DNA of 11,603 bases from a bacterium (GTDB lineage: Bacteria; Patescibacteriota; Patescibacteriia; SG8-24): positions 1 through 11,603 of the forward strand of contig JAHFIV010000036.1 of the NCBI GenBank assembly GCA_023246225.1. The letters run 5' to 3'. The notes beneath the pieces were generated by a model. That model did not search any database. It was not told the origin of the DNA and saw nothing but the letters and a program-made list of their open reading frames with translations. Made by a program: the position numbers and the translations under genes. This document shows, in pieces, positions 1-10,326 of the stretch. Every line of letters begins with the position of its first letter. The first letter of the stretch is position 1.

Positions 1-128
1 CCTCCGAGCCGGAATCCAAAAAAATACAAAAGCCAAACGAATCTCGTTTGGCTTTTTTTACGTTCTGGATTCCGGCTCGGAGGCCGGAATGACAAGAAGT
101 GGGTCCCGGATCAAGGCCGGAATGACAA
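1..128. repeat. Copy A of an intergenic nested-inverted-repeat element (MITE/BIME-like), truncated on the left by the window edge. The right arm TTCTGGATTCCGGCTCGGAGGCCGGAATGACAA runs 63-95, with an extra outer half-repeat GGCCGGAATGACA at 115-127.
   Basis: Near-identical to copies at 2444-2598, 6085-6258 and 7671-7816. The arms are reverse complements of each other around a central hairpin. The right flank GAATGACAAGAAGTGGGT is shared with copy D. Confidence 0.8.
17..59. terminator. Bidirectional rho-independent terminator inside repeat copy A. It lies downstream of aceA on the minus strand.
   Basis: A-tract 17-31. Hairpin GCCAAACGA-ATCT-CGTTTGGC at 32-52. T7 tract 53-59. On the minus strand the hairpin is followed by TTTTGTATTTTTTT. 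The aceA stop codon is at 142-144. Confidence 0.7.
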
Positions 129-141
129 AAAGAGCAAATCG

Positions 142-1452
142 TTACTTCGTAGGATCACCCTCGATCGGTGCCACGAACTGCGCAGCCTCGGTGGAACCCT
201 TGAGCGCGGTCGTCGACGACTGACCGCTTGAGATCACCTCTGCGACAGCGTCGAAGTATCCGGTACCGACCTCGCGCTGATGACGCGTCGCGGTGTACCC
301 CGCCGCTTCGCTTGCGAACTCGCGATCCTGGAGTGCGGCGTATGCCGACATGCCAGACTTCGCGTACTCGCGTCCGAGATCGAACATCGACAGGTTCAAC
401 GCGTGAAATCCTGCGAGGGTCACGAACTGGAACTTGTATCCCATCGCAGCGATGTCGCGCTGAAACGATGCGATCGCGGCGTCGCTCAGATGTTTCCGCC
501 AGTTGAACGACGGCGAACAGTTGTACGCGAGCAACTTGCCCGGGAACTTCGCGTGCACCGCTGCGGCGAACTGCTTCGCCTCTGCGATGTCGGGAGTCGA
601 CGTCTCGCACCAGAGCATGTCTGCGTACGGTGCGTACGCGAGCGCGCGTGCGATCGCACACTCAATTCCACCGCGAATGCGGAAGTATCCTTCGGGCGTC
701 CGCTCGCCGGTGCAAAACGGTTTGTCACCAGCATCGATGTCCGACGTGAGCAGCGTCGCGCTGTGTGCGTCGGTTCTCGCGATGATCACCGTCGGCACAT
801 CCTCCACGTCCGCAGCGAGTCGCGCGGCGATGAGCGTTCGAATGAACTGACTCTGCGGCACGAGCACCTTGCCTCCGAGATGACCGCACTTCTTCTCCGA
901 AGAGAGCTGATCCTCGAAATGCACGGCGGCCGCGCCAGCCGCGATCATCGCCTTCATCATCTCGAACGTGTTCAGCGGTCCACCGAATCCCGCCTCGGCG
1001 TCCGCGATGATCGGCGCGTACCAATGCGTGGTGTCACCCTTGTTCTCGCTGGACGCGATCTGATCCTGACGCCTGAGCGCCTGATTGATGCGACGAACGA
1101 GTATCGGAACGCTGTTCGCGGGGTAGAGGCTCTGGTCGGGGTAGGTTTCGCCGGCGAGATTCGCATCCGCCGCCACCTGCCAACCGCTGCAGTAGATCGC
1201 CCTGAGTCCCGCGCGCACCGACTGCACCGCCTGGCCGCCAGTGAGACAACCGAGTGCTGCGACGTGCTCTGTTCCCTGGAGCATCCCCCAGAGACGAAGT
1301 GCGCCGTGACCGGCGAACGTGTGCGAAATGCGGAGCGAACCCTGCAATCGCGAAACATCATCCTCTGAGTACGGCCGCACGATCCCGTGCCAACGCGAAC
1401 CAGACCATCGCTGCACCGCACCACCACCGCCTACCACCCAATCGATACCCAT
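142..1452 (-). CDS. aceA: Isocitrate lyase (glyoxylate shunt).
   Basis: Contains the ICL signature [13 protein letters not shown]. Aligns along its length with mycobacterial and E. coli isocitrate lyase from memory ([51 protein letters not shown]). The start is placed at MGIDW (ATG at 1450-1452) because AAGGAGG sits 5 nt upstream. The track's ORF begins 51 nt earlier with no SD. Confidence 0.93.
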
Positions 1453-1626
1453 CGCATCCTCCTTCTGACGCGTCCTTCCGGAAGCGCTCAAAAACGCTAG
1501 CATGAACGCGGCCTAAGTTCAATAGTTGACTTTTTAGGGGAAATCTGTCAGGATCTGAACGGTTCATTTTCCGCCGTTTCGACGGTACAACCCCACAAAC
1601 ACCGGCAAAACCGGAGAAGGCACGTC

Positions 1627-2373
1627 ATGTTCACCTTGTTCATGTTCGGTTCCGCAGCGTTCTGGATCCTCCTCGTGATCCACGGGATCATCCTGGTCGC
1701 GTTCGTCGAGAACGAGAGGCCCGGCTGGGCGACAGCCTCGTTCATCGCCCTCGTCGCCACGCTCGGCTTCCTCGGCGACTTCAACATCGTCAAAGCCGCG
1801 TTCGGCCACCTCGGCCTCACCGCAGGCTTCCTCGCGGCCTACTTCGTCCTCGGCACGGCGTACTCAGCGTACAAGTGGCGGAAGTACGTCACGATCCTGG
1901 GCAAGGAGTACGACGAGCTGAAGGCGAACTTCCTCCAGGCCTACGGCATCCAAGGCACCGATATCCCTGACATACACCTGCTCGAGTGGCAGCGAACCAG
2001 TCAGGGCTACGGAAGAAGGGAGAGGTTCCCGCGCGAGTTCAACGGAGTCCCCCAGGTCGAGCACAATAAGCGGCGCGTCCTCGCATGGATGTGCTACTGG
2101 CCCTGGCTATTCGTGTGGACGGTGATCGATGACCCGGTGCGGCGCGCGTTCAAGGTGATCTTCGAGCGCATCAAGTCTTGGTTGCAGAGCTTCGCGAACA
2201 AGCAGTTCGCCGGAGTCGCGAGCGACTTCCGCTCACCACCTCCGCCGCCGCAGGCTCCCGCAGGGACTGTCGCTGATCCGTTCGCTACCAACACAACCGG
2301 TGCTGGTGCGAACGTCGCCGCGCTCGACTACGACGACGAGAAGACCCCTCTCTCCCCCGTTTCTCCCGCCTAG
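1627..2373 (+). CDS. Hypothetical polytopic membrane protein with a Pro-rich C-terminal tail (PPPPPQAPAG).
   Basis: GGAGAAGG lies 8 nt upstream of the ATG. Three N-terminal hydrophobic helices and a fourth around VLAWMCYWPWLFVWTVI. High-GC third-position usage. No recognised family. Confidence 0.7.
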   Translation: MFTLFMFGSAAFWILLVIHGIILVAFVENERPGWATASFIALVATLGFLGDFNIVKAAFGHLGLTAGFLAAYFVLGTAYSAYKWRKYVTILGKEYDELKANFLQAYGIQGTDIPDIHLLEWQRTSQGYGRRERFPREFNGVPQVEHNKRRVLAWMCYWPWLFVWTVIDDPVRRAFKVIFERIKSWLQSFANKQFAGVASDFRSPPPPPQAPAGTVADPFATNTTGAGANVAALDYDDEKTPLSPVSPA

Positions 2374-2392
2374 TCGCGACACATCACAATAC

Positions 2393-2423
2393 GAGACTCG
2401 TCATGACGACGAGTCTCTTTTTT
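2393..2423 (+). terminator. Rho-independent terminator of the 1627-2373 gene.
   Basis: Perfect 10-bp stem GAGACTCGTC/GACGAGTCTC at 2393-2402 and 2408-2417, with a 5-nt loop, followed by TTTTTT. Confidence 0.8.
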
Positions 2424-2443
2424 AATATATTGTTTCCCTCTTT

Positions 2444-2598
2444 TGTCATTCCGGGCCGTCTTTCTTTGTCATTCCGGCCTCCGAGCCGGAATCCAGAAAA
2501 ATAAAAAGAACAAACAAAATTCGTTTGGTCTTCTTTTTTACGATTCTGGATTCCGGCTCGGAGGCCGGAATGACAAAAAAATATGGGCTGGAATGACA
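2444..2598. repeat. Copy B of the nested-inverted-repeat element.
   Basis: Left half-repeats TGTCATTCCGGGCC and TTGTCATTCCGGCCTCCGAGCCGGAATCCAGAAA. Central A-rich run then CAAAC..GTTTGG then T-rich run. Right arm TTCTGGATTCCGGCTCGGAGGCCGGAATGACAA plus outer GGCTGGAATGACA. Confidence 0.85.
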
Positions 2599-2611
2599 AT
2601 GAAAAAGTGAG

Positions 2612-2647
2612 CAATAAAAAATCCCCTGAAGCGTGATGCTTCAGGGG
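2612..2647 (-). terminator. Rho-independent terminator of the flotillin gene.
   Basis: Perfect 10-bp stem CCCCTGAAGC/GCTTCAGGGG with loop GTGAT. On the minus strand it is followed by ATTTTTTATT. Confidence 0.8.
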
Positions 2648-2673
2648 GCGAGACAAACTCTCTTCTTCTGTTA

Positions 2674-4494
2674 CTAGCCGCCGTTCGCGACGCCGACCTT
2701 GGCCGGTGCCGCCTGCGGTGCGGGGGTGGAAACGGGTGCGCTCCCGCTGTCCTCGGCGGATCCGCTGAGACGTGTAGCCGCGGCGTTCAGCACCTTGCCG
2801 AGCGTCGCACCGGCACCTTGGACGATCTCCTTGGTGTCGTTGCTGGCGGCGGCGAAGAAGCCGTCGACCTTGGTCGCGAGCGTCATGCCGTCCATGAAGC
2901 TCCTGCTCATCCTGCCGACGTCCTCGGGGCTGCCGAAGACCTGCGCCGAGATGGAGCTGGAGAACTGGGCCATGGCCTTGGCACCTTCGATGCGGATCTC
3001 CGCCTCCTTGGTGATACGCAGCTTGGCGAGCTCGAAGTCCTGCATCGCCGAACCGTGCTCTGCGCGAGCCTCGAGCTCCTTCAGAAGCACGTTGACCTTG
3101 CGCTGCTCGACGTCGACTTGCGCGCTGGCCACGTCGACCGGCACCATCGCCTCGGCCTTCTGACCTCTGGCACGTGCCTCGGCCGCGGTGGACTCGGCGT
3201 TCGCCTTCTTGGTGATCGCCTCCGCCTCTGCGTCCGCGGCAGCCTTCTGGCCTTCGGCTTTCTTCTGGAGTCCGTAAGCCACGGCGTCCGCGGCCTTCTG
3301 GGCCTGGACGTACGCTGTCTGCGCGGTCGCTTCGGCGCCGATGACCTGCGTGGTCTTGGCGCGCTCGGCTTCGGCGGTGACCTTCACGGTCGTGATCGCC
3401 TGCCGCTCGGTCTCGCGCGCGGCTTCCGCCGTGGCGAGCTCGGCTTCCTTCGCCGTGCGTCCCGCTTCGGCCTGCGCGATCGCCGCCTGCTTGGTGCGTT
3501 CGGCGACCTCGATCGCTTGCTGCTGGGTGCGCTTGGCGACCTCGATCGCTTGCTGCTTGTCGATGTCGGCGAGATCGATCGCTTTCGTGGTGGCGATCTT
3601 CTCCTGCTCCGTCGCCTGGGTCTGCTGCGCCTGGGCGACAGCGATCAGCGACTGCTGTGTGGCTTCGGCTTCAGCCTGTTCACGCAGCAGATCCAGCACC
3701 GCCTTCTTGGTGGTGACGTCCTGCGAGGTCCGCGCCTGCTCTCCCTCACGCTCGAGCTGGTTGCGCTCGGTCTTCTTGGCCTGCACGATGCGAGCCACGA
3801 CTGCCGCACCCTGCGCATCGAAGATGTTGTGATCGCTATTTAGGGCCACGAGATCGGTCTGATCGAGCTTGGAGATGGTGACACCTTCGAGTGTGAAGCC
3901 GTTCTGCTGCAACTCGAACTTCACGATCTTCGTGACCTCCGCCACAAACTGATCACGCTCTCGATTGAGAGCTTCGAGATTCATGGTAGTTGCAACGGAA
4001 CGAAGGGCTGACACGAGCTTGGTTTCGATGAACTCGTTGAAAAGCTTCCAGTCCCCCATGTACTCGCTGCATGAACGTGCCGCTTGCTGGATGCTGTCGA
4101 GATCGGGTTGCACCCGAATGTAAAACTCCGTGGTCACATCGGCACGAAGCATGTCCTTGGTGAGGAGCGCGTTCTTGCCATCTTTTGCGACCACAAGCTT
4201 CCTGCTGCCGAGTGGGACTCGAACGAGCGTATGCATGAACGAGATGACCAGCACACCACCATCCTTGATCACCTTCATTCCACCCGTACCCGTGCGGACG
4301 AGAGCCTCGTTGGCCTTCGTCTTGTGGTAAAGGTGAGTGACTGTGGCAAGAATGCCGGCGAGGATCGTGAGTGCAACTCCGCACACGAGCAACACTGTGG
4401 TTGCGAGGATGCCGAGCGAATGCCCGAGCGCGCTTGCGGTGACCGGTCCTGCGATGAGCAGGAGTCCGAAGACGAGGAGTAGTACGATTCCCAT
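2674..4494 (-). CDS. SPFH/band-7 flotillin-like protein (YqiK-like) with an N-terminal membrane anchor and a long Ala/Glu/Gln-rich coiled coil.
   Basis: EALVRTGTGGMKVIKDGGVLV matches the E. coli YqiK QAFVRTGLGGQKVVMSGGAIV region. An SPFH core is followed by about 250 aa of EAEA/QQA heptad-hendecad repeats. The start is chosen at MGIVLLL (ATG 4492-4494, weak GGAAAGAGAG upstream). The alternative ATG at 4548 has no SD. Confidence 0.85.
   Translation of the reverse strand: MGIVLLLVFGLLLIAGPVTASALGHSLGILATTVLLVCGVALTILAGILATVTHLYHKTKANEALVRTGTGGMKVIKDGGVLVISFMHTLVRVPLGSRKLVVAKDGKNALLTKDMLRADVTTEFYIRVQPDLDSIQQAARSCSEYMGDWKLFNEFIETKLVSALRSVATTMNLEALNRERDQFVAEVTKIVKFELQQNGFTLEGVTISKLDQTDLVALNSDHNIFDAQGAAVVARIVQAKKTERNQLEREGEQARTSQDVTTKKAVLDLLREQAEAEATQQSLIAVAQAQQTQATEQEKIATTKAIDLADIDKQQAIEVAKRTQQQAIEVAERTKQAAIAQAEAGRTAKEAELATAEAARETERQAITTVKVTAEAERAKTTQVIGAEATAQTAYVQAQKAADAVAYGLQKKAEGQKAAADAEAEAITKKANAESTAAEARARGQKAEAMVPVDVASAQVDVEQRKVNVLLKELEARAEHGSAMQDFELAKLRITKEAEIRIEGAKAMAQFSSSISAQVFGSPEDVGRMSRSFMDGMTLATKVDGFFAAASNDTKEIVQGAGATLGKVLNAAATRLSGSAEDSGSAPVSTPAPQAAPAKVGVANGG
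3502..3590. repeat. In-frame 33-nt tandem repeat, two good copies and a diverged third, inside the flotillin coiled-coil region.
   Basis: GGCGACCTCGATCGCTTGCTGCT occurs at 3502-3524 and 3535-3557. A third unit GGCGAGATCGATCGCTTTCG follows at 3568-3590. This encodes 11-aa repeats QQAIEVAKRT, QQQAIEVAERT and KQAAIAQAEAG. Confidence 0.7.
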
Positions 4495-4553
4495 GGTGGT
4501 CTCTCTTTCCGTTTCGTTGGGTTGGGGGTTGGTGTTTTCGTGTCTCATGAAGT

Positions 4554-5270
4554 TCAGTGCGTCGTCGTCAGGTCGTCGGCGGGGTTCGCCTCGACCGTGA
4601 AGCAGTCCTGTTCCTGATCGTAGTCGATGATCAGAATCTCTATTCCCTTCGGAAGCTCACCGTTCTCGGTGCGCACCGCGATGTCGTAGACACCGCCTTT
4701 CGAATCCAAAACTCTCGCGAGCCCGAACTTCTGATCAGCGGGGAGAAGCAGAGTGCCGGTCGTACCGACGAAGTCCTGCTTGCGGACGTTGTGCGTCTCG
4801 GTCATCGGCATCACGCGGTTCAGCCCGCGAGCGATCTTCCCCGTGAGGAAAAACGACACGAGAGAAGCGACTGCGAACGATACCGGTGCGTAGACGTACA
4901 CTGAGACGAGCGACTGGAGCGCCGCGTTCACGATCAGACCTGTGCAGCCGAACACCATCGACATGATCATCAGAATGATCGTGACCGGGACGCGCCCGAT
5001 ACCGATGTAGCTGAACAGCCTGGAGAAGAACGAACGCTCGTTTCCCTCTCCGGCGGGTGCGACCGCGAGCGGGTTGTGGCCGCGCTCGTTGTCGGTGTCG
5101 TGATCGTGCTCGGTGTCGTGACCGACGTCGTGATCTCCCTCGATGTCGTGATCGACATCGAGGTCGGCATCGTGGCCGATGAAGCCCAGCACTGCGCCGA
5201 GGACCAGCAAGATGCCGAATCCGAGCGAGATGATGAAAATCAGATTCTGTGGCTCGAGAAAAAACTCCAT
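4554..5270 (-). CDS. NfeD/YqiJ-like membrane protein, the usual operon partner of SPFH proteins, with a His/Asp-rich loop.
   Basis: Sits immediately upstream of the flotillin gene and is co-oriented with it. It has N-terminal TM helices, a C-terminal soluble beta-rich domain (VYDIAVRTENGELPKGIEILIIDYD), and a loop GHDADLDVDHDIEGDHDVGHDTEHDHDTD. The start is chosen at MEFFLEP (ATG 5268-5270) because AGAGGAG sits 6 nt upstream. The upstream ATG at 5297 has no SD. Confidence 0.75.
   Translation of the reverse strand: MEFFLEPQNLIFIISLGFGILLVLGAVLGFIGHDADLDVDHDIEGDHDVGHDTEHDHDTDNERGHNPLAVAPAGEGNERSFFSRLFSYIGIGRVPVTIILMIMSMVFGCTGLIVNAALQSLVSVYVYAPVSFAVASLVSFFLTGKIARGLNRVMPMTETHNVRKQDFVGTTGTLLLPADQKFGLARVLDSKGGVYDIAVRTENGELPKGIEILIIDYDQEQDCFTVEANPADDLTTTH
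5090..5180. repeat. Degenerate GTCGTGATC-like short repeat tract encoding the His-Asp-rich loop.
   Basis: Minus-strand coding of HD dipeptide runs. The plus strand shows reiterated gtcgtgatc / gtcgtgacc / gtcggcatcgtg units. Confidence 0.45.
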
Positions 5271-5403
5271 GAGTGACTCCTCTTGCACGTCGCTCATGAG
5301 CGAACGTGTCTTGTGTTGGGGTTGTGGTTGTCAACGTGCCATGCGTTGAGTGCTTTCTGTGGCCCCTCACGCATCAGTCTCTTACCAAGAGAGTGCGATT
5401 TTG

Positions 5404-6042
5404 TCAAGATTTAGTGTCTTTTGCCTTAAAAATTTCGAAAATCGGGGGGAGGAGAGAGATCACGATAATCGCGAGAATGATGAGCGTAAAATTGTGCCGC
5501 ACGGCGGGAAGATTGCCGAAAAAGTACCCGCCGAGCGTAAACAGTGCGATCCAAAGCGCACCACCAACGACATTGTATATAAGGAAGGTGCGATAACGCA
5601 TTCGCCCGACTCCCGCCACGAACGGAGCAAATGTGCGGACGATCGGCATGAACCGCGCAATCACGATCGTCTTTGCGCCATACTTTTCATAAAAATGCTG
5701 CGTACGTTCGAGGTGCGCAGGACGGATTTTTATCCCAAAAAATGTGCCACGCGCGATGATCGATGCGCCGATACGCCGCCCGATCCAATAATTCACGGTG
5801 TCACCGAGAACAGCGGCGAGTATACAAAGGAAGAGAAGCGCAGAAAGATGCAGCGCGCCGTTTGCTGCGAAAGCCCCCGCAGCAAAAAGCAGCGAGTCAC
5901 CGGGGAGAAACGGTGTGACAACGAGTCCAGTCTCACAGAACAGCACAACAAAAAGTACGCCGTACGTTCCTGCGCCATACTGCGCGATTACGTTCGCGAG
6001 ATGGGTGTCGAGATGGAGAAAGAGGTCGATGAGTACGTGCAT
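5404..6042 (-). CDS. DedA-family (VTT/SNARE-associated domain) inner-membrane protein.
   Basis: FCETGLVVTPFLPGDSLLFAAGAFAA is the DedA hallmark. The length and topology resemble E. coli YqjA/YghB. Confidence 0.85.
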   Translation of the reverse strand: MHVLIDLFLHLDTHLANVIAQYGAGTYGVLFVVLFCETGLVVTPFLPGDSLLFAAGAFAANGALHLSALLFLCILAAVLGDTVNYWIGRRIGASIIARGTFFGIKIRPAHLERTQHFYEKYGAKTIVIARFMPIVRTFAPFVAGVGRMRYRTFLIYNVVGGALWIALFTLGGYFFGNLPAVRHNFTLIILAIIVISLLPPIFEIFKAKDTKS

Positions 6043-6062
6043 ATATGTCTAGAGACCCCGTT

Positions 6063-6090
6063 AGTATACATGTCCCTTCTCCATTGTCAT
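6063..6090 (-). promoter_or_regulatory. Putative sigma70-type promoter for the DedA gene, with the -35 supplied by the repeat terminus.
   Basis: On the minus strand: ATGACA (the complement of 6085-6090, which is the TGTCAT end of repeat copy C), a 16-nt spacer, then TATACT (complement of 6063-6068). This places the start site about 14 nt upstream of the ATG at 6042. Confidence 0.35.
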
Positions 6091-6258
6091 TCCGGCCAAC
6101 CTTTGTTGTCATCCCGGACCTCCCTCTCTTGTCATTCCGGCCTCCGAGCCGGAATCCAGAAACGTAAAAAAGGATCAAATAAAATCTGCTTGGTTACTTT
6201 GTTGCGTGGATTCCGGCTCGGAGGCCGGAATGACAAAGAAAGATGGTCCAGAATGACA
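6085..6258. repeat. Copy C of the nested-inverted-repeat element, with a degenerate central hairpin.
   Basis: Three left half-repeats (TGTCATTCCGGCC, TGTCATCCCGGACC, TGTCATTCCGGCCTCCGAGCCGGAATCCAGAAA) and two right ones (GGCCGGAATGACAA, CCAGAATGACA). The centre is CAAATAAAATCTGCTTGG with no clean T-tract. Confidence 0.85.
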
Positions 6259-6266
6259 ATCGCGAT

Positions 6267-6297
6267 AAGAAAAAACGTCCCGCAATAATGCGAGACG
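6267..6297 (-). terminator. Rho-independent terminator of the 6305-6790 gene.
   Basis: Hairpin CGTCCCGCA-ATAA-TGCGAGACG, a 9-bp stem with one mismatch. On the minus strand it is followed by TTTTTTCTT. The stop codon is at 6305-6307. Confidence 0.55.
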
Positions 6298-6304
6298 CCG
6301 CGTG

Positions 6305-6790
6305 TTACCAGGGGATCAGACGCCTGAGCAGCTCCGACCAGTTCTGCATGATGTCTGCGTGTCGGAGAAGTTCCTGGTGAGCCGCCACTTCGATCGGATC
6401 CGGAGCGAACAGGTACAAGTACGGAACGTGGTTGATCGCGTACTGCATGATGTGCGGTCGGTCGTCGACGAAGTGCGTCACGTCCTCTGCGATGCACACC
6501 GAGGCCTTCTCCTCTGGGTTACGAACGAACCGCAGAGCCTCTGGCGAAATCCCGGTCTGCTCGTGGAATCCCTTTTCCTTGAGCCATGCCCGCTTCACGC
6601 GCTCGATCTCCGGCGTGCACTGCGAGAGTAGGATTACTCGACCGTCGAAGCATTCGCGGTAGAGTCGCCCCGCACCATCGAACGAGCCCGGGGTCGGCAG
6701 CGCTGCCGCATACCCCTCGGGAGTCGATCCTCCCTGTGCCTTCAACACCGGTCCACCCAAATCGAGCGCCAACTTTTCTTTTCTGGCCAT
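6305..6790 (-). CDS. Hypothetical small soluble protein. It has a weak NT5C/HAD-like N-terminal resemblance, but motif I is degenerate (LALDLGGPV instead of hhDxDGV).
   Basis: AAAGGAG lies 7 nt upstream of the ATG at 6788-6790. The track ORF extends 27 codons further upstream without an SD. The family assignment is tentative. Confidence 0.6.
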   Translation of the reverse strand: MARKEKLALDLGGPVLKAQGGSTPEGYAAALPTPGSFDGAGRLYRECFDGRVILLSQCTPEIERVKRAWLKEKGFHEQTGISPEALRFVRNPEEKASVCIAEDVTHFVDDRPHIMQYAINHVPYLYLFAPDPIEVAAHQELLRHADIMQNWSELLRRLIPW

Positions 6791-6864
6791 GCCCAGCTCC
6801 TTTCGTGAGCCCCTGCACTTCGCAGGAAAAACAGTACACCACACATTTTTGAAATAAGCAAGGG

Positions 6865-6893
6865 TTGACAACGCAAGCGCGCATCACTACGCT
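6865..6893 (+). promoter_or_regulatory. Putative promoter for the 6913 gene.
   Basis: TTGACA at 6865-6870, a 17-nt spacer, then TACGCT at 6888-6893. GGAGG at 6903-6907 precedes the ATG at 6913. Confidence 0.3.
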
Positions 6894-6912
6894 GAGAGTC
6901 TCGGAGGAAACC

Positions 6913-7656
6913 ATGAACCTCGAACAGTTCCTTGATACAAGCCGACGCGAACATACAGAACTCAGCTTGCGTAGCGCGCTCGGTGCGCGACGCATCGATG
7001 CCGCGGAGGCGCTCGAAAAAAACAAACAACTCCTCGAGCGCTACACTGCGGTGATCACCGCATTCGATGGATTAGAGCGGTGCTCGAGCGCAGGGTACAT
7101 GATGCGCGAGCATGTGCGGTGGATGTTTGTTGCGCGGTACACCGCCTCACAGGTGCTGAGCACAGTGAAGCCGACAGCACTCGAATGTGTGATCGTTCCC
7201 GAAGCGATCGTTACGCAGAATCGCCATCTGCCATGCCACGACGCGCTCGCTACTTCTGGTGCATGCGCGATGCGCACCGTCTCTTTCACCAGTCAGCAGA
7301 TCGCCGAGGAAGCTGTAGCGGTATACGCCAGCGCAAACGTTCGCATCGGTGAATACGAAGACGCGTTGATCGAAATGTGTCGCGCCTGCGGAGAAAAATC
7401 GGTTGTGGTTTGCAAGCACTCGATCAAAGTCGAGGAGGACGATCACGAGATCACGCTGTATCGTCTGTGCATGCACTGCCCGAATCTCCAAGAGATCGCG
7501 CGCATGACCAGCCTCGGTCCCACGCACGGTGATCTCGACACGCTCTTTCCGCGGACGACGGAAGTGATAACAGAGGGGGCGGTCGCTCCCACGACTTCCG
7601 CATCCCCCATCCAGACGAATCCAGACGAGGCTACCGCACCCGAACCGGTGCGGTAA
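6913..7656 (+). CDS. Hypothetical Cys-rich protein with a putative zinc ribbon (CRAC-x8-CKH ... CMHC) and a Pro/Thr-rich C-terminus.
   Basis: GGAGG lies 5 nt upstream of the ATG at 6913. The track ORF starts at a TTG at 6865 that coincides with the -35 hexamer. No recognised family. Confidence 0.6.
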   Translation: MNLEQFLDTSRREHTELSLRSALGARRIDAAEALEKNKQLLERYTAVITAFDGLERCSSAGYMMREHVRWMFVARYTASQVLSTVKPTALECVIVPEAIVTQNRHLPCHDALATSGACAMRTVSFTSQQIAEEAVAVYASANVRIGEYEDALIEMCRACGEKSVVVCKHSIKVEEDDHEITLYRLCMHCPNLQEIARMTSLGPTHGDLDTLFPRTTEVITEGAVAPTTSASPIQTNPDEATAPEPVR

Positions 7657-7670
7657 CGACCCTCTTCTTT

Positions 7671-7816
7671 GTAATTCCGGCCACCACCTTGTCATTCCGG
7701 GCTCGACCCGGAATCCAGAAAAAATAAAACAACCAAACGTAATCACGTTTGGTCTTTTTTTACGATTCTGGATTCCGGGTCGAGCCCGGAATGACAAGAA
7801 GTGGGTTGGAATGCGT
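7671..7816. repeat. Copy D of the nested-inverted-repeat element. It is a variant with compensatory changes and an intact central bidirectional terminator.
   Basis: Left GTAATTCCGGCC then TTGTCATTCCGGGCTCGACCCGGAATCCAGAAAA. Centre is an A-tract, then CCAAACG-TAATCA-CGTTTGG, then TCTTTTTTT. The right arm TTCTGGATTCCGGGTCGAGCCCGGAATGACAAGAAGTGGGT is the exact reverse complement of the left arm. Confidence 0.85.
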
Positions 7817-7877
7817 TGCGTGTGGTTCATGAAATTTCCTCCACCACAAGCAAACACGATCCGCAATTTAATATTTT

Positions 7878-8309
7878 TTAAATATTCTTCACCTCAAGAA
7901 TGTGCGGCTTGATGAATACCTTGATCGACGCAACTTCTTCATCTTTCTTTTTTGCATCACTCGCCGCGACATTTTTTGCAAACTGGTAGAGAACGAGTGG
8001 TGGAATATGAAGCCACTTCTGATTCTTGTGCAAAAAATACAGTAGCGTCATCACTGCGATGCGTTTGTTGCCGTTCTCAAAGGGATGATTCTTAATCATC
8101 AAATAAAAAAGTGCCGCAGCTTTGTCGAGCAGCGTCGGATACAATTCGCGTTTGTCGTATGTTTGTTGCGGAACAGAAAGACAACTCTCGAGACGATTGG
8201 GATACCGAGAAGCGAACGGAGGGATCGGTTCACCCCCCTCCATCATCTGACGCGCGAGCTCATGCGCAACGCATTCGACTTCTCCAAGCGTGAGATATTC
8301 CATACTCAT
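7878..8309 (-). CDS. doc: Doc-family (Fic-fold) toxin, death-on-curing-like kinase.
   Basis: HPFENGNKRIAV matches the Doc variant of the Fic motif HxFx(D/N)GNKR. The protein is about 140 aa. Its start codon overlaps the upstream gene's stop by 4 bp (ATGA). The region is AT-rich. Confidence 0.8.
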   Translation of the reverse strand: MSMEYLTLGEVECVAHELARQMMEGGEPIPPFASRYPNRLESCLSVPQQTYDKRELYPTLLDKAAALFYLMIKNHPFENGNKRIAVMTLLYFLHKNQKWLHIPPLVLYQFAKNVAASDAKKKDEEVASIKVFIKPHILEVKNI

Positions 8310-8566
8310 TCTTTGGCGAGCGCACGAAACGTTTCACCGTACTCATCCAACGCTTGTTTCACCACTTTTTGAATTTCGAATTTTTTCTCCGCAGAAAGAT
8401 CGGTGCCCAAAAGCAGCGGCATATCTTCTGCCAAAACAATGAATGATCGGCCGATTTTTGCAGCCTTCAGCTTCCCTGACTTCACCCAACGAAAAACAGT
8501 AATTCGGCTCACCCCGAGCAATTCCGCGGCTTCTTTAAGAGAGAAATGCGACTTTGTTGCACTCAT
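8306..8566 (-). CDS. HTH DNA-binding protein (excisionase/MerR-like HTH_17). Presumed antitoxin and autorepressor of the Doc module.
   Basis: LKEAAELLGVSRITVFRWVKSGKLKAAKIG is a classic excisionase-family HTH. It is translationally coupled to doc. The start is taken at ATG 8564-8566 (MSATKS). The track's first codon is a TTG at 8582-8584 inside the operator palindrome. No clear SD for either start. Confidence 0.65.
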   Translation of the reverse strand: MSATKSHFSLKEAAELLGVSRITVFRWVKSGKLKAAKIGRSFIVLAEDMPLLLGTDLSAEKKFEIQKVVKQALDEYGETFRALAKE

Positions 8567-8572
8567 ATAGAG

Positions 8573-8615
8573 ATAGTGTAACAATTGTTACATGATATGT
8601 CAAATAGTGTAACAA
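8573..8615. promoter_or_regulatory. Putative operator for the HTH-Doc operon. It has a 16-bp perfect palindrome and a direct 12-mer repeat.
   Basis: TGTAACAATTGTTACA at 8577-8592. ATAGTGTAACAA occurs at 8573-8584 and again at 8604-8615, 31 bp apart. The palindrome lies between the putative -35 (TTGACA, complement of 8598-8603) and the -10 (TACACT, complement of 8575-8580). Confidence 0.5.
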
Positions 8616-8670
8616 AATAAACTCTCTCTAAACTAGGTGGATATTTCGTCCTTAGTGTCAGGAACTTTAT

Positions 8671-8698
8671 AATATAAAAACACCCGCTCAAGAGCGGA
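8671..8698 (-). terminator. Terminator downstream of the tRNA-His gene (tRNA operon).
   Basis: Hairpin CCGCTC-AA-GAGCGG, or CCGCT-CAAG-AGCGG, at 8683-8697. On the minus strand it is followed by a T-rich tract (complement of AATATAAAAA at 8671-8680). Confidence 0.5.
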
Positions 8699-8706
8699 TG
8701 TTTTTA

Positions 8707-8782
8707 TGGGGTGGCCAGAGGGAATCGAACCCTCATCAGCGGGACCACAACCCGCTGTGCTAACCGTTGCACCATGGCCACC
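8707..8782 (-). tRNA. tRNA-His (anticodon GUG) with G-1 and an encoded CCA.
   Basis: Reverse complement is GGTGGCCATGGTGCAACGGTTAGCACAGCGGGTTGTGGTCCCGCTGATGAGGGTTCGATTCCCTCTGGCCACCCCA. The cloverleaf folds with anticodon loop UUGUGGU. The extra 5' G pairs with discriminator C, as is typical of bacterial tRNA-His. Confidence 0.92.
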
Positions 8783-8843
8783 ATGTCATTCTTAGGAGTC
8801 GCCGACGCACAATAACGTATCTTCTTCACCCTTTCAAGAGGGG

Positions 8844-8918
8844 TGGTGCCCCCGGTAGGAGTCGAACCCACATCACGCGGGTAGAAACCGCGTGCTCTAT
8901 CCATTGAGCTACAGGGGC
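8844..8918 (-). tRNA. tRNA-Arg (anticodon UCU) with an encoded CCA.
   Basis: Reverse complement is GCCCCTGTAGCTCAATGGATAGAGCACGCGGTTTCTACCCGCGTGATGTGGGTTCGACTCCTACCGGGGGCACCA. Acceptor GCCCCUG/CGGGGGC, T-loop TTCGACT, anticodon loop UUUCUAC. Confidence 0.9.
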
Positions 8919-8932
8919 GTAACTCTCTGCGG

Positions 8933-8961
8933 AAGATACCTCTCTAAAGGCCCGACGTCAA
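8933..8961 (-). promoter_or_regulatory. Putative promoter of the tRNA-Arg/tRNA-His operon.
   Basis: On the minus strand: TTGACG (complement of 8956-8961), a 17-nt spacer, then TATCTT (complement of 8933-8938), about 8 nt upstream of the mature tRNA-Arg 5' end. The -35 overlaps the palindrome GTCAATC-GAGG-GATTGAC at 8957-8974. Confidence 0.35.
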
Positions 8962-8969
8962 TCGAGGGA

Positions 8970-8998
8970 TTGACAAATCGACCTTATTATGGTAGCAT
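8970..8998 (+). promoter_or_regulatory. Putative divergent promoter for the small ORF at 9039.
   Basis: TTGACA at 8970-8975, a 17-nt spacer, then TAGCAT at 8993-8998. It shares the palindrome with the tRNA promoter. Confidence 0.3.
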
Positions 8999-9038
8999 CT
9001 TTGGTTCCATTGCGTTGGGACTTACAGAGGAGAAAAAC

Positions 9039-9245
9039 ATGCGTTCTCGGATTCGCTATGGCTGGGATAGCACAGTTGCGGAGTTCCCCGACACGCGCGA
9101 GCTGATGAATCGCGCGTCAGCGGCGCTCAGTCTCCCCGTCGACGACGATGATGAGAAGGAGCGACTGGTCGGAGTGGCAGAAGACTCGTTCAGCAAGCGC
9201 GAGTTCAAGAAGTGCGAGGAGGCGCTCATCAGGCTCGGTCTCTAG
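9039..9245 (+). CDS. Small acidic hypothetical protein (68 aa, DDDDEKE tract).
   Basis: GAGGAG lies 6 nt upstream of the ATG. A strong terminator follows. The track ORF's N-terminal extension overlaps tRNA-Arg and is rejected. Confidence 0.5.
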   Translation: MRSRIRYGWDSTVAEFPDTRELMNRASAALSLPVDDDDEKERLVGVAEDSFSKREFKKCEEALIRLGL

Positions 9246-9263
9246 GCGACATACCTGCTCGAA

Positions 9264-9295
9264 GGCCGGCGGTTCTCAGGACCGCCGGCTTTTTC
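9264..9295 (+). terminator. Rho-independent terminator between the convergent small ORF and the xer gene.
   Basis: 9-bp stem GCCGGCGGT/ACCGCCGGC, loop TCTCAGG, then TTTTT. Confidence 0.75.
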
Positions 9296-9299
9296 AATG

Positions 9300-10241
9300 T
9301 CATTTTTTCTTTTTTCCTTTTGCGTGAAAGGCGTTGTATACCTCGCGCAGTCGTTCATCGGTGATGTGCGTGTAAATTTGTGTGGTCGTGATCGACGAAT
9401 GACCGAGCAGTGTTTGCACACTGCGAATGTCAGCGCCGTTTCTGAGTAAGTCAGTGGCGAATGTATGACGCACCGTGTGCGGCGTGATCCGTTTTGTGAT
9501 TCCCGCTGCGCGCGCATAGTGTTCGACGATGCGTTGCACACTGCGCGGAGTGAGACCGCCATCATAGTCGCGACCTTTTCGCGCGCGATCATGACTCGTA
9601 AATAAAAATGGCGACATGTCTTTTCTTTTCGCGAGATATTTTTCAATCCAATATCGCGCTTGATTCGAAAGAAACACCACGCGCGGTTTGTCGCCTTTTC
9701 CACGCACCGTAAATTCTTCGCGTTTCAAATTGATCGTTTCTTTTTTGAGTCCTGCGAGTTCGGAAACGCGCAGCCCTGTCGAAAATAACATTTCAAGAAT
9801 TGTTTTGTCGCGCAAACGAACAACGTCCGCGTTCGCTTCACCACCTCGACTATTTTTAAACGGCGCTTCGAGCAAGCGCTCAAGCTCCTCCGCATCGAGA
9901 AACGCAACCGAACGCTCGGGCATTCGCGCGAGTTCAATTTTTTCTGGTGCGAGGGTTTTGACGTCACGCTTCGAAAGATATTTGAGAAAAGATCGGAGTG
10001 CGATCAGATGATAATTCTGTGTATTTTTTTTCATCCCCTTTCCGTGTTGATCTTTGTAACGATTCAACCACACGCGATACTGGCGCACGAGATCGAGCGT
10101 GATTTTTTCTGGTGTGATATTTTTCGACCAAAGAAAAAATCGTCGCAAATAAAAATCGTAATTTTTTACGGTTCGTTCGGAACGGTTCCGTTCCACCTCG
10201 AGATACACGAGGAAGTCACTAATCAAATTTGTTGCGGGCAT
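9300..10241 (-). CDS. xerC: XerC/XerD-family site-specific tyrosine recombinase.
   Basis: It aligns along its whole length with E. coli XerC/XerD from memory, sharing the motif blocks TVKNYDFYLRRF, DKTILEMLFSTGLRVSELAGL, VRGKGDKPRVVFL, HTVRHTFATDLLRNGADIRSVQTLLGHSSITTTQIYTHI, and a Lys-rich tail like XerC. The XerC versus XerD assignment is uncertain. The GC content is lower than in flanking genes. Confidence 0.85.
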   Translation of the reverse strand: MPATNLISDFLVYLEVERNRSERTVKNYDFYLRRFFLWSKNITPEKITLDLVRQYRVWLNRYKDQHGKGMKKNTQNYHLIALRSFLKYLSKRDVKTLAPEKIELARMPERSVAFLDAEELERLLEAPFKNSRGGEANADVVRLRDKTILEMLFSTGLRVSELAGLKKETINLKREEFTVRGKGDKPRVVFLSNQARYWIEKYLAKRKDMSPFLFTSHDRARKGRDYDGGLTPRSVQRIVEHYARAAGITKRITPHTVRHTFATDLLRNGADIRSVQTLLGHSSITTTQIYTHITDERLREVYNAFHAKGKKKK

Positions 10242-10252
10242 AGAGTCTCTAC

Positions 10253-10258
10253 ATTATA
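10253..10258 (-). promoter_or_regulatory. Perfect TATAAT -10 box for the xer gene, implying a near-leaderless transcript.
   Basis: The complement of ATTATA at 10253-10258 gives TATAAT, with only 11 nt between the -10 and the ATG at 10241. There is no SD, and no good -35. Confidence 0.4.
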
Positions 10259-10284
10259 CGTCACATCTTCTGGCTGAGATAGAG

Positions 10285-10326
10285 CACAAAAAGAAAACAC
10301 CCCGCGTGGAAGACCATGCGAGGTGT
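10285..10326 (-). terminator. Terminator of the 10359-10856 gene, just upstream of the xer promoter.
   Basis: Hairpin ACACCCCGCGTGG-AAGA-CCATGCGAGGTGT (13-bp stem, 2 mismatches). On the minus strand it is followed by TTTTCTTTTTGTG. Confidence 0.6.

Follow-up and report, generated by a model that had tools for sequence, protein, structure and literature searches.

What are the four palindromic elements, 130-176 bp long and all intergenic, that lie within this 11.6-kb window (the whole stretch of DNA that was analysed), and how might they have come to be there? A previous sequence-only reading described them as one nested-palindrome family of the REP/BIME type, resembling other small repeat families and located at gene 3' ends or between convergent genes. 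A repeat search combined with alignment recovered all four copies, with boundaries offset by 1-3 nt, and both the setting, which holds for every copy, and the general type of family were borne out. The copies are referred to here as c1 to c4, in order of ascending coordinate (Table 1). We favour, with a probability of roughly 0.7, a reading in which these loci are clusters of Ssn-related REP hairpins that spread unit by unit.

The elements follow a common overall plan, in which two units lie inverted, with their tags facing outwards, around a conserved palindromic spacer, with one or two degenerate half-units stacked beyond this inverted dimer. Each unit is made up of an unpaired tag, (C/T)GTC, an 8-bp stem (ATTCCGGN/N'CCGGAAT), a loop of 5-6 nt and an unpaired tail, CCAG(AA), and the conserved spacer reads, in order, A-tract, GCCAAACG-loop-CGTTTGGC, T-tract and ACG. 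The terminal head motif is indeed reiterated, with its complement at the right end, as had been described: the 11-mer TGTCATTCCGG, with at most one mismatch, occurs 14 times in the window, every time inside one of the four elements, on the plus strand on left sides and on the minus strand on right sides, against an expectation of 0.24 from dinucleotide shuffles (none of 200 shuffles reached 14). All 14 heads have the tag TGTC in front of the stem, in one case in the version TGTA, and the tail CCAGAA follows the stem in every inner unit, c1 having the version CCAAAA. The loop measures 5 nt (CTCGA) in c4; in c1-c3 it measures 6 nt on the tagged strand, compared with a published 4-5 nt, and on the opposite strand, where a G-T pair forms, 4 nt. 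A full-length form of c1 is found in a relative (L119, 3699-3838; 98% identical), with one head on the left and two units on the right.

Table 1 Coordinates of the four elements, their parts and the intrinsic terminators beside them
Feature	Position	Strand	Description and evidence
c1	1-128	.	Cut by contig start; repeat search and alignment
c1 left inner unit remnant	1-20		
c1 spacer hairpin	28-56		AAAAGCCAAACGA-ATC-TCGTTTGGCTTTT with A/T tracts; terminator-like on both strands (terminator scan)
c1 right inner unit	63-94	-	Tag on minus strand
c1 second right unit	99-127		Near-complete
c2	2443-2599	.	Repeat search and alignment
c2 left outer half-unit	2443-2465		
c2 left inner unit	2467-2498	+	
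c2 spacer	2499-2543		
c2 right inner unit	2544-2575	-	
c2 right outer half-unit	2577-2599		
c3	6084-6259	.	Repeat search and alignment; spacer degenerate
c3 left half-units	6084-6105, 6106-6128		
c3 left inner unit	6130-6161	+	
c3 right inner unit	6204-6235	-	
c3 right half-unit	6237-6259		
c4	7669-7814	.	Repeat search and alignment
c4 left half-unit	7669-7688		TGTAATTCCGG
c4 left inner unit	7690-7720	+	Stem variant GGGCTCGACCC
c4 spacer hairpin	7731-7754 (or 7732-7753)		ACCAAACGT-AATC-ACGTTTGGT, A-/T-tracts either side; terminator-like on both strands (terminator scan)
c4 right inner unit	7766-7796	-	
c4 right half-unit	7798-7814		Degenerate
Terminator of gene 1627-2373	2393-2417	+	Intrinsic; outside c2; terminator scan
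Terminator of SPFH/flotillin-like gene (2674-4494, -)	2623-2647	-	Intrinsic; outside c2; terminator scan
Terminator of gene 6305-6790 (-)	6274-6299	-	Intrinsic; outside c3; terminator scan

The claimed nesting of hairpins within a larger palindrome was confirmed by folding. The inner arms (32-33 nt) are mutual reverse complements, and each forms an 8-bp hairpin whose loop is 5-6 nt long, at about -8 kcal/mol as single-stranded DNA. The whole elements, folded as single-stranded DNA, each collapse into a single long hairpin, with energies from -56 to -67 kcal/mol and z-scores between -10.6 and -17.9 (c1, -62.3 kcal/mol, z -13.5; c2, -67.3, z -17.9; c3, -56.1, z -10.6; c4, -60.6, z -13.6), and the two 76-nt arms of c2 are 83% complementary. 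The most conserved parts are the unit's tag, stem and tail, the terminator being less so.

With respect to genes, c2 and c4 are placed between convergent neighbours, and c1 and c3 between genes running in the same direction, immediately 3' of the upstream gene. Across 17 dimers of the lineage (those of the window included), ten lie between convergent, six between same-direction and one between divergent genes. The proposal that every copy embeds a bidirectional terminator held for two of the four: in the terminator scan c1 and c4 alone scored, each on both strands, these two having an intact central CCAAACG..CGTTTGG hairpin with its T-tract, c2 a weakened one and c3 a degenerate one. In addition, c4 is the sole terminator-like structure between its convergent genes. 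Three of the four genes that flank c2 and c3 have a canonical terminator of their own just outside the element, while the fourth, DedA, has its 5' end toward c3. Both terminators beside c2 are conserved in relatives, that at 2393-2417 whether c2 is present or not.

We compared the c2-c4 sites with those of relatives whose flanks are 90-99% identical. Across these genomes c2 is complete, short of one half-unit or absent; c3 takes the form of a full dimer, as in L118 and L121 (99% conserved), or of just one unit; and c4 is present or absent. In L120, which lacks c4, the c3 site holds only a unit and a half-unit, from the DedA-proximal (lower-coordinate) side, and a single repeat unit directly follows the T-tract of a terminator matching 6274-6299. 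Where relatives lack c2 or c4, ordinary hairpins occupy those sites. Close relatives differ by whole units at three of the four sites, which shows turnover to be unit-wise. Relatives offered no clean empty site, the sites being occupied by single units, shortened versions or different hairpins, and the window sequence revealed no consistent direct repeat beside any copy that could represent a target-site duplication. In several assemblies of the same species, contigs break off within copies (at the start of the window and at the ends of L118, L001 and L003), and it is plausible that the genome is saturated with these elements, as had been suggested. Dimers in 11 metagenome stretches combine the same spacer with other unit stems, heterodimers included; the composite of dimer and spacer is lineage-specific.

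The building block, by contrast, is known and very widespread among bacteria. Neisseria dRS3, Rickettsia RPE-4/-6 and Wolbachia repeats all belong to one superfamily, the CGTC-tagged REPs (Di Nocera, De Gregorio & Rocco 2013, BMC Genomics 14:522; PMC3733652). Such REPs are defined by an unpaired terminal tag, CGTC (with TGTC and CCTC allowed), a stem of 8-9 bp in which A and T come first, a loop of 4-5 nt and a short unpaired 3' tail, CCA, and are said to be repeated, mostly intergenic, downstream of ORFs and often arranged as inverted dimers. The units in the window have such a tag, AT-start 8-bp stem and CCA tail, and their location corresponds as well, with four dimers in 11.6 kb and 16 of the 17 lineage dimers between convergent or same-direction genes. 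The four loci are thus probably clusters of CGTC/TGTC-tagged REP hairpins of the dRS3/NTS/SRM kind. The sequence-only reading had not recognised the family; at the level of the unit the repeats largely belong to a named one, whereas the exact composite matches none.

An exact-unit query (GTCATTCCGG-N7/8-CCGGAATCCAGAA) found the unit in more than 114 stretches from many diverse phyla; plasmid and phage collections gave no match. Among the matches listed, the innermost stem pair covaries (GC in 60, CG in 35 and AT in 15 of 120 units), the loop reads CTTGA in 69 of the 120, GTC is preceded by C in 65 and by T in 48 of them, and the unit is a singleton in many genomes. GIY-YIG was the sole recurrent nuclease or mobile family among the 191 nearest-neighbour ORFs of the matches listed, and neither these nor 25 neighbours in the lineage included a recurrent transposase. 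Single-domain GIY-YIG ORFs, classed by PF01541 and 84-100 aa long, were found at 8 of the 114 loci listed. At 6 of the 114 the unit directly adjoins such an ORF (PF01541 only, 93-100 aa), no more than 150 nt away, and L048, L087 and L088 have units on both sides of it. CGTC-tagged repeats, collectively called Ssn-related motifs, are also the NTS/SRM motifs, which are bound and cut as single-stranded DNA by small GIY-YIG Ssn nucleases of the cd10448 type (Chenal 2025, Nat Commun 16:2388; PMC11893778), which cleave single-stranded DNA only, on one strand and upstream of the motif, the Wolbachia pair included (PMC11893778). No Ssn/GIY-YIG gene was found in the window or in about 35 kb of close relatives, and about 110 kb of lineage contigs contained one GIY-YIG only (L133), of a different-looking subfamily and without flanking units.

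The elements might alternatively be RNA-level modules (bidirectional terminators and stabilisers of mRNA 3' ends, or else an sRNA gene), with repetition reflecting function and not selfish spread. The terminator scores of c1 and c4, the position of c4 as the only such structure between its genes, the placement of elements at gene 3' ends and the record of a Wolbachia homologue as a small RNA (RF02625) would all suit this reading, which we nevertheless judge unlikely. In c2 the central hairpin is weakened and in c3 it is degenerate, and c2 lies between the native terminators of both neighbours, as c3 lies beyond that of its upstream gene, while relatives without c2 or c4 use ordinary hairpins there. 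Furthermore, it is the tag, stem and tail of the unit that are most conserved, not the terminator, and, since the element is palindromic, it defines no strand-specific RNA.

Two kinds of transposon-borne repeat were also considered. In the inverted doublet with its conserved spacer, the logic of a single-stranded DNA hairpin, the intergenic 3' position and the co-variation of both arms within a copy (c4 versus c2), the elements recall REPINs, which are inverted REP doublets moved as single-stranded hairpins by a single-copy RAYT, an IS200-like Y1 HUH transposase. The tag, however, is TGTC/CGTC and not GTAG, the published survey found CGTC families that lacked an associated tyrosine transposase (Di Nocera 2013, PMC3733652), and what recurs among the 191 neighbouring ORFs of the matches listed is GIY-YIG, with no recurrent Y1 transposase there or among the 25 lineage neighbours. 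Support for the RAYT/IS200-like enzyme that had been envisaged was therefore lacking among those 191 ORFs, and the REPIN reading appears improbable. More improbable still is an origin as classical MITEs, deletion derivatives of a DDE-transposase IS that move by cut-and-paste with target-site duplications, in which the TGT...ACA ends and reiterated subterminal sites would bind transposase. Long terminal inverted repeats with TGTCA...TGACA ends, 11-mers reiterated every 20-23 nt, like Tn7/Mu-type ends, and presence/absence differences among relatives would be expected of such elements. Against this stand the missing direct repeats and clean empty sites, variation among relatives by single units and half-units, the occurrence of the unit as a singleton in many genomes, the lack of a recurring transposase among the neighbours surveyed and the absence of matches in plasmid and phage collections; with neither duplication, empty site nor parent transposase, the earlier likening to MITEs and Correia elements is not supported.

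How, then, might clusters of Ssn-related REP hairpins work and spread? During single-stranded phases (replication, repair or DNA uptake) each unit may fold into its own hairpin, which a small Ssn-family GIY-YIG nuclease could read strand-specifically, placing its cut a few nucleotides to the 5' side of the tag. As the tags face outwards, each strand would then carry a single cleavable unit, located at the edge of the element that is 5' on that strand. Copies would arise and decay one unit at a time, by copying linked to the nuclease or to recombination and by hairpin-mediated deletion rather than by cut-and-paste, and would survive directly 3' of genes, where they would do transcription no harm. 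As a by-product, read-through transcripts would finish in a very stable hairpin, and intact copies would provide a Rho-independent terminator usable from both sides. To our knowledge, the multiplication of such repeats by a GIY-YIG nuclease has no demonstrated mechanism in any system.

Among known systems, Correia/NEMIS and other MITEs are similar in length (about 100-160 bp), in their terminal inverted repeats and in possible promoter or terminator activity, but Correia elements have a TA target duplication and defined termini, in place of the unit-level modularity without duplication seen here. REPIN/RAYT systems (Pseudomonas, E. coli BIMEs) likewise comprise intergenic inverted doublets that fold as one long hairpin around a conserved spacer, with presumed single-stranded intermediates; they differ in pairing a GTAG tag with a Y1 HUH transposase, as opposed to TGTC with a GIY-YIG nuclease, and no RAYT was found among the neighbours of the units. 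The likeness to CGTC-tagged REPs extends from the unpaired CGTC/TGTC tag, AT-start 8-bp stem, CCA tail and, in c4, the loop of about 5 nt to the predominance of inverted dimers, with spacers of 20-100 bp, some conserved with small stem-loops, and to their location between convergent or same-direction genes, beside 3' ends. CGTC-2 is the closest of the types described there, as judged by stem and loop lengths only. The Neisseria stem is of the CCCGCG type, in contrast to CCGGNC in the window, and the 6-nt loop of c1-c3, the stacked outer half-units, the lineage-specific spacer and the host, an uncultivated lineage outside that survey, are further differences.

The NTS/SRM-Ssn system shares the flanks (C/T)GTCATTCC...GGAATCCAG, a hairpin core whose orientation is set by non-palindromic flanks, a biology of hundreds of copies in many phyla, and, in six other genomes, an identical unit adjoining small single-domain GIY-YIG genes. 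The window unit nonetheless departs from both the NTS consensus and the degenerate SRM string: the published search string, HGTCWYN(0-2)YYVSBRHN(0-5)WNVSBRGN(0-2)RNCYNB (PMC11893778), has no match on either strand of the window, because the stem reads CCGGCC/CCGGGC, not CCCGCG, at the position that requires R. Rfam RF02625 (WsnRNA46, Wolbachia sRNA 46) aligns full-length with c4 (58.1 bits, over model positions 1-151) and scores 54.9 bits with c2 and 43.5 and 24.7 bits with the other copies, all four lying below its gathering threshold of 65.3 bits. Both combine a short outer stem and a long stem with a loop of about 50 nt that is rich in A/T, and both contain TGTCAT...GGATCCAGAAAA and CTGGAT...ATGACA; the stem of the Wolbachia unit is 9 bp long and differs in sequence. 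RF02625 is a Wolbachia CGTC-type repeat dimer, and its sRNA label is no evidence of RNA function here. Finally, Neisseria dRS3/NIME arrays and Rickettsia RPE-4/-6 share the ATTCC(C/G)-N-GGAAT palindrome core and form clustered arrays tied to synteny breaks and variable loci. Their stems differ in sequence from those described here; the Neisseria repeats flank RS elements and act as prophage integration sites, and many of the Rickettsia copies are intragenic, whereas all four in the window are intergenic.

A repeat search and a MAFFT alignment confirmed the family of four palindromic elements (c1-c4) that a sequence-only reading had proposed for the window, an 11,603-bp contig from an uncultivated bacterium which opens in the middle of a copy, c1 being cut at the contig start. 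The elements are composed of units, each with a TGTC or CGTC tag, an 8-bp stem, a loop and a CCAG tail (TGTCATTCCGG...CCGGAATCCAG); two units with their tags outward form a dimer around a spacer, and degenerate half-units are stacked outside it. The head motif TGTCATTCCGG, allowing at most one mismatch, occurs 14 times in the window, with all 14 occurrences lying within c1-c4, on the + strand on the left sides of the elements and on the - strand on their right sides (expectation 0.24; 0 of 200 dinucleotide shuffles reached 14). The reiterated outer 12-mers proved to be heads and 5' stem halves of additional units, and the second right-hand unit of c1 is nearly complete (GGGTCCCGGATCAAGGCCGGAATGACA). 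When folded as single-stranded DNA, each whole element forms one long hairpin (-56 to -67 kcal/mol; z = -10.6 to -17.9), and the inner arm alone folds with an 8-bp stem and a 5-6-nt loop at about -8 kcal/mol. Within each copy the two arms co-vary, with c4 carrying GGGCTCGACCC on both and c2 and c3 carrying GGCCTCCGAGCC.

Coordinates of elements c1-c4, flanking genes and native terminators in the window
Feature	Position	Strand	Remark
c1	1-128		truncated
c2	2443-2599		
c3	6084-6259		
c4	7669-7814		
Isocitrate lyase	142-1452	-	
Membrane protein	1627-2373	+	
SPFH/flotillin-like	2674-4494	-	
YqiJ-like	4554-5297	-	
DedA/VTT	5404-6042	-	
Gene	6305-6790	-	product unassigned
Gene	6913-7656	+	product unassigned
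Fic	7878-8309	-	
HTH antitoxin-like	8306-8584	-	
tRNA-His	8707-8781	-	
tRNA-Arg	8844-8918	-	
Small ORF	9039-9245	+	
XerC/D-like recombinase	9300-10241	-	
Canonical native terminator	2393-2417	+	just outside c2
Canonical native terminator	2647-2623	-	just outside c2
Canonical native terminator	6299-6274	-	outside c3

The gene context bore out the proposed intergenic location at gene 3' ends or between convergent genes: c2 and c4 are flanked by convergent genes, and c1 and c3 have same-direction genes on both sides and lie just 3' of the upstream gene. An ORF at 7147-7866 (- strand), with a good Shine-Dalgarno sequence and an ATG (GGAGGAAATTTCATG, ATG at 7841), crosses c4 and then runs antisense to the gene at 6913-7656, yielding a '...PGIQ...' type peptide; such peptides are typical of mis-annotated ORFs over repeats of this kind, and this ORF is probably spurious. 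Two of the genes carry in-frame tandem periodicities, one of 18 nt in the YqiJ-like gene (5086-5181, encoding His/Asp-rich repeats on the - strand) and one of 33 nt in the SPFH/flotillin-like gene (3477-3584).

A bidirectional terminator had been ascribed to every copy. In a simple scan, the spacer hairpins of c1 (28-56) and c4 (7731-7754) were terminator-like on both strands, whereas those of c2 and c3 did not score, so that two of the four copies do have the bidirectional terminator. That of c4 is plausibly in use, since nothing else terminator-like separates its convergent genes. The terminator neither defines nor maintains the repeat family. At the outward end of c3 (6063-6090, - strand), an ATGACA -35-like hexamer is spaced 16 nt from a TATACT; the DedA-like gene starts about 20 nt downstream, at 6042, and its promoter may include this repeat end.

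A metagenome scan for the unit tail joined to CCAAACG..CGTTTGG identified 11 stretches, in which the dimers have a palindromic spacer in common, running CCAGAA(ACGT)A-rich, GCCAAACG-loop-CGTTTGGC, T-rich, ACG, TTCTGG. The stems of their units vary: some dimers are heterodimers, some units have long stems, and one unit sits inside the loop of another. The metagenome contigs with this composite resemble the window in the elements only (80-89% over 100-120 nt), and the dimer with its CCAAACG..CGTTTGG spacer is therefore a lineage-level module. Seventeen dimers, including those of the window, have callable neighbours: 10 lie between convergent genes, six between same-direction genes and one between divergent genes. 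Extended-stem unit variants (ATTCCGGAAGCCGC...GCGGCTATCCGGAAT) were seen at 2585-2650, 772-815 and 3183-3224 of three stretches (L129, L124 and L125, respectively), one of these units carrying a small hairpin, CCCCGGATCAAGTCCGGGG, nested in its loop.

Contigs of close relatives, gathered via 90%-identity protein clusters, provide snapshots of unit-by-unit gain and loss beside native terminators, which bears on how such repeats multiply without a transposase. Element c1 is kept in L119 between about 98% identical flanks, and c3 in L118 and L121 between about 99% identical flanks; in L120, where the flanks are 90-95% identical, c3 is represented by one unit and a half-unit only, with the T-tract of the native terminator immediately before them. 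In L122 and L118, c2 is present but misses the outer half-unit on its right side, together with about 35 nt of flank. Element c2 is absent from L121 and L119, with unrelated hairpins filling the gap between both native terminators. The L119 site was rejected as a clean empty site: the gene downstream of it has no relation to the flotillin-like gene of the window, which weakens the comparison, and a shortened c2 does occur beside that flotillin-like gene on a contig of the same assembly, so that L119 counts only as an absence with a change in synteny, and L121 and L122 offer the better comparison for c2. In L120, which lacks c4, the stop codon is followed by an ordinary bidirectional hairpin, and synteny is not kept.

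The c2-less site of L121, at 1591-1663 (TTGTCCCGGACAGACG...GATCCGGGATC), bears a loose resemblance to a long-looped, TGTC-tagged unit, and may be either a degenerate unit or one of another type. L119 carries a second small palindromic repeat, TTTGGTGCCTGGCACCAAA, with two copies at 1835-1872 (region 1820-1880) and none in the window; a related hairpin lies at 6127-6170, the site that corresponds to c2. The synteny break in L120 falls exactly at c4, the left edge of a block at 7800-10300 of the window with a GC content of 42-50%, compared with about 60% elsewhere. This block holds a Fic/HTH toxin-antitoxin-like pair, tRNA-His, tRNA-Arg, a small ORF and a XerC/D-like recombinase, and may represent an integrated island with a repeat copy at its boundary. 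One copy sits at a synteny breakpoint, and metagenome contigs of the window's organism break at these repeats.

Several mobile-element readings were weighed against this pattern. That the elements are MITEs was not sustained: none of c1-c4 has a consistent flanking direct repeat, orthologous regions of the relatives compared held single units, shortened copies or other hairpins instead of a clean empty site, and no transposase accompanies the elements. The relatives' pattern fits unit-wise gain and loss of the REP type, and not cut-and-paste transposition. Reiterated sites and TGT...ACA termini recall the ends of Tn7- or Mu-like elements; this reading was rejected, given the lack of a transposase and of a target-site duplication, and given that singleton units are common. 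Mobilization by a RAYT/IS200-like enzyme likewise gained no backing from the neighbouring genes. Among the 191 nearest-neighbour ORFs of the matches listed, Pfam detected no recurrent Y1/RAYT or DDE transposase family, and none of the 25 ORFs neighbouring lineage dimers encodes a transposase. A BLAST search of c2 against plasmid and phage collections gave no match.

The sole recurrent nuclease or mobile-element family among those 191 ORFs is GIY-YIG. An iterated HMM search of all ORFs of the matches listed showed 8 of the 114 loci to encode small GIY-YIG proteins, and those tested with Pfam were PF01541-only and 84-100 aa long. In six loci (L048, L077, L083, L087, L088 and L093) no more than about 150 nt separate the gene from the unit, and in three of these (L048, L087 and L088) units are found on both sides of it. 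The window's unit variant therefore behaves in other genomes like SRM, the motif of the Ssn (small GIY-YIG ssDNA nuclease) system. No Ssn-like gene was found in the window, in about 35 kb of close relatives or in about 110 kb of lineage contigs. The gene for the sole GIY-YIG protein of the lineage contigs (L133, 7620-8190; 84 aa, PF01541, UPF0213-like) has a tRNA gene on each side and lies about 0.9 kb from a composite element, with no repeat units flanking it. A scan of viral contigs for the unit returned four stretches only, none with a GIY-YIG gene.

Hairpins of this kind are published substrates of Ssn nucleases, which cleave them strand-specifically in ssDNA form, a few nucleotides 5' of the tag (PMC11893778). 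The present analysis shows the anatomy and structural covariation of the units, the association of the identical unit with small GIY-YIG genes elsewhere, the unit-wise turnover and the 3'-end location. Beyond these results, it is inferred that units in the window's organism would be substrates of a cognate Ssn and, their tags pointing outward, each strand would offer one cleavable unit at its 5' element edge. Copying and decay would proceed via nuclease- or recombination-linked repair and hairpin slippage. The step by which a GIY-YIG nuclease would multiply its own sites forms no part of this claim. A bolder reading, which we consider unlikely, is that the composite itself (~110-150 bp; two outward-tagged, stem-interchangeable units and a two-way-terminator spacer) is the replicating entity in this uncultivated lineage, a GIY-YIG-dependent analogue of REPINs with a terminator as cargo. 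Stacked half-units would then have been left behind as scars by successive rounds of Ssn cutting and hairpin-primed repair, and the elements would provide a natural system for studying the multiplication of recognition sites by a nuclease that is not a transposase.

The resemblance to REP/BIME repeats noted in the sequence-only reading was correct, the unit anatomy fitting CGTC-tagged REPs; the family had been taken there as unrecognised, although the CGTC-REP/SRM superfamily is already published (PMC3733652, PMC11893778). All copies match Rfam RF02625 ('Wolbachia sRNA 46') end-to-end, below threshold (best for c4, 58.1 bits against a gathering score of 65.3, model positions 1-151), and share with it a left-hand TGTCAT..GGATCCAGAAAA and a right-hand CTGGAT..ATGACA. 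Plant miRNA families that matched over the elements in Rfam E-value mode (among others MIR2646 at 2438-2604, 63.8 bits against a gathering score of 245) were discarded as generic long-hairpin matches rather than homologues. In a scan of one genome per species, GTCATTCCGG-N7/8-CCGGAATCCAGAA was found in at least 114 stretches, the hosts among the matches listed including Patescibacteria, Dehalococcoidia, Deltaproteobacteria, Nitrospirota, Bacteroidales/Prevotella, Spirochaetia, Planctomycetota and others. The common form in these matches is (C/T)GTC-ATTCC-stem-loop-GGAAT-CCAG; its inverse, CTGG-ATTCC...GGAAT-GAC(G/A), often comes next, beyond a short spacer. Across the 120 units recovered from these matches the innermost stem pair covaries (GC 60, CG 35, AT 15, non-Watson-Crick 10), and the loop is CTTGA in 69.

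CGTC-tagged REPs were defined by Di Nocera et al. 2013 (PMC3733652) as having a CGTC, often TGTC, tag, an 8-9-bp stem starting with A-T, a 4-5-nt loop and a CCA tail. They mostly form inverted dimers with 20-100-bp spacers, some conserved and with small stem-loops, lie mainly between convergent and same-direction ORFs near 3' ends, and have no known dedicated transposase; members include Neisseria dRS3, Rickettsia RPE-4/-6 and one Wolbachia family (PMC3733652). The oriented dRS3 motif, NTS (CGTCATTCCCGCGMAVGCGGGAATCYRG), is bound and cut as ssDNA only, on a single strand upstream of the motif, by SsnA, a 94-aa single-domain GIY-YIG nuclease (cd10448), and ssn genes of diverse phyla, those of Wolbachia among them, are flanked by related motifs (SRM) (Chenal et al. 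2025, PMC11893778). The NTS consensus and the degenerate SRM search string, used here as a search heuristic and not as a definition, gave no hits in the window, because the stem of its unit is CCGG(C/G)C, in contrast to CCCGCG in NTS/SRM; the published SRM string misses a unit variant that is present in many phyla, including candidate-phyla bacteria. Set against the definition of Di Nocera et al., the window unit agrees in every feature except the 6-nt loop of c1-c3. The window elements are a lineage-specific addition to the known CGTC-REP/SRM superfamily, which leaves the picture of what such repeats are unchanged and extends the superfamily to an uncultivated lineage.
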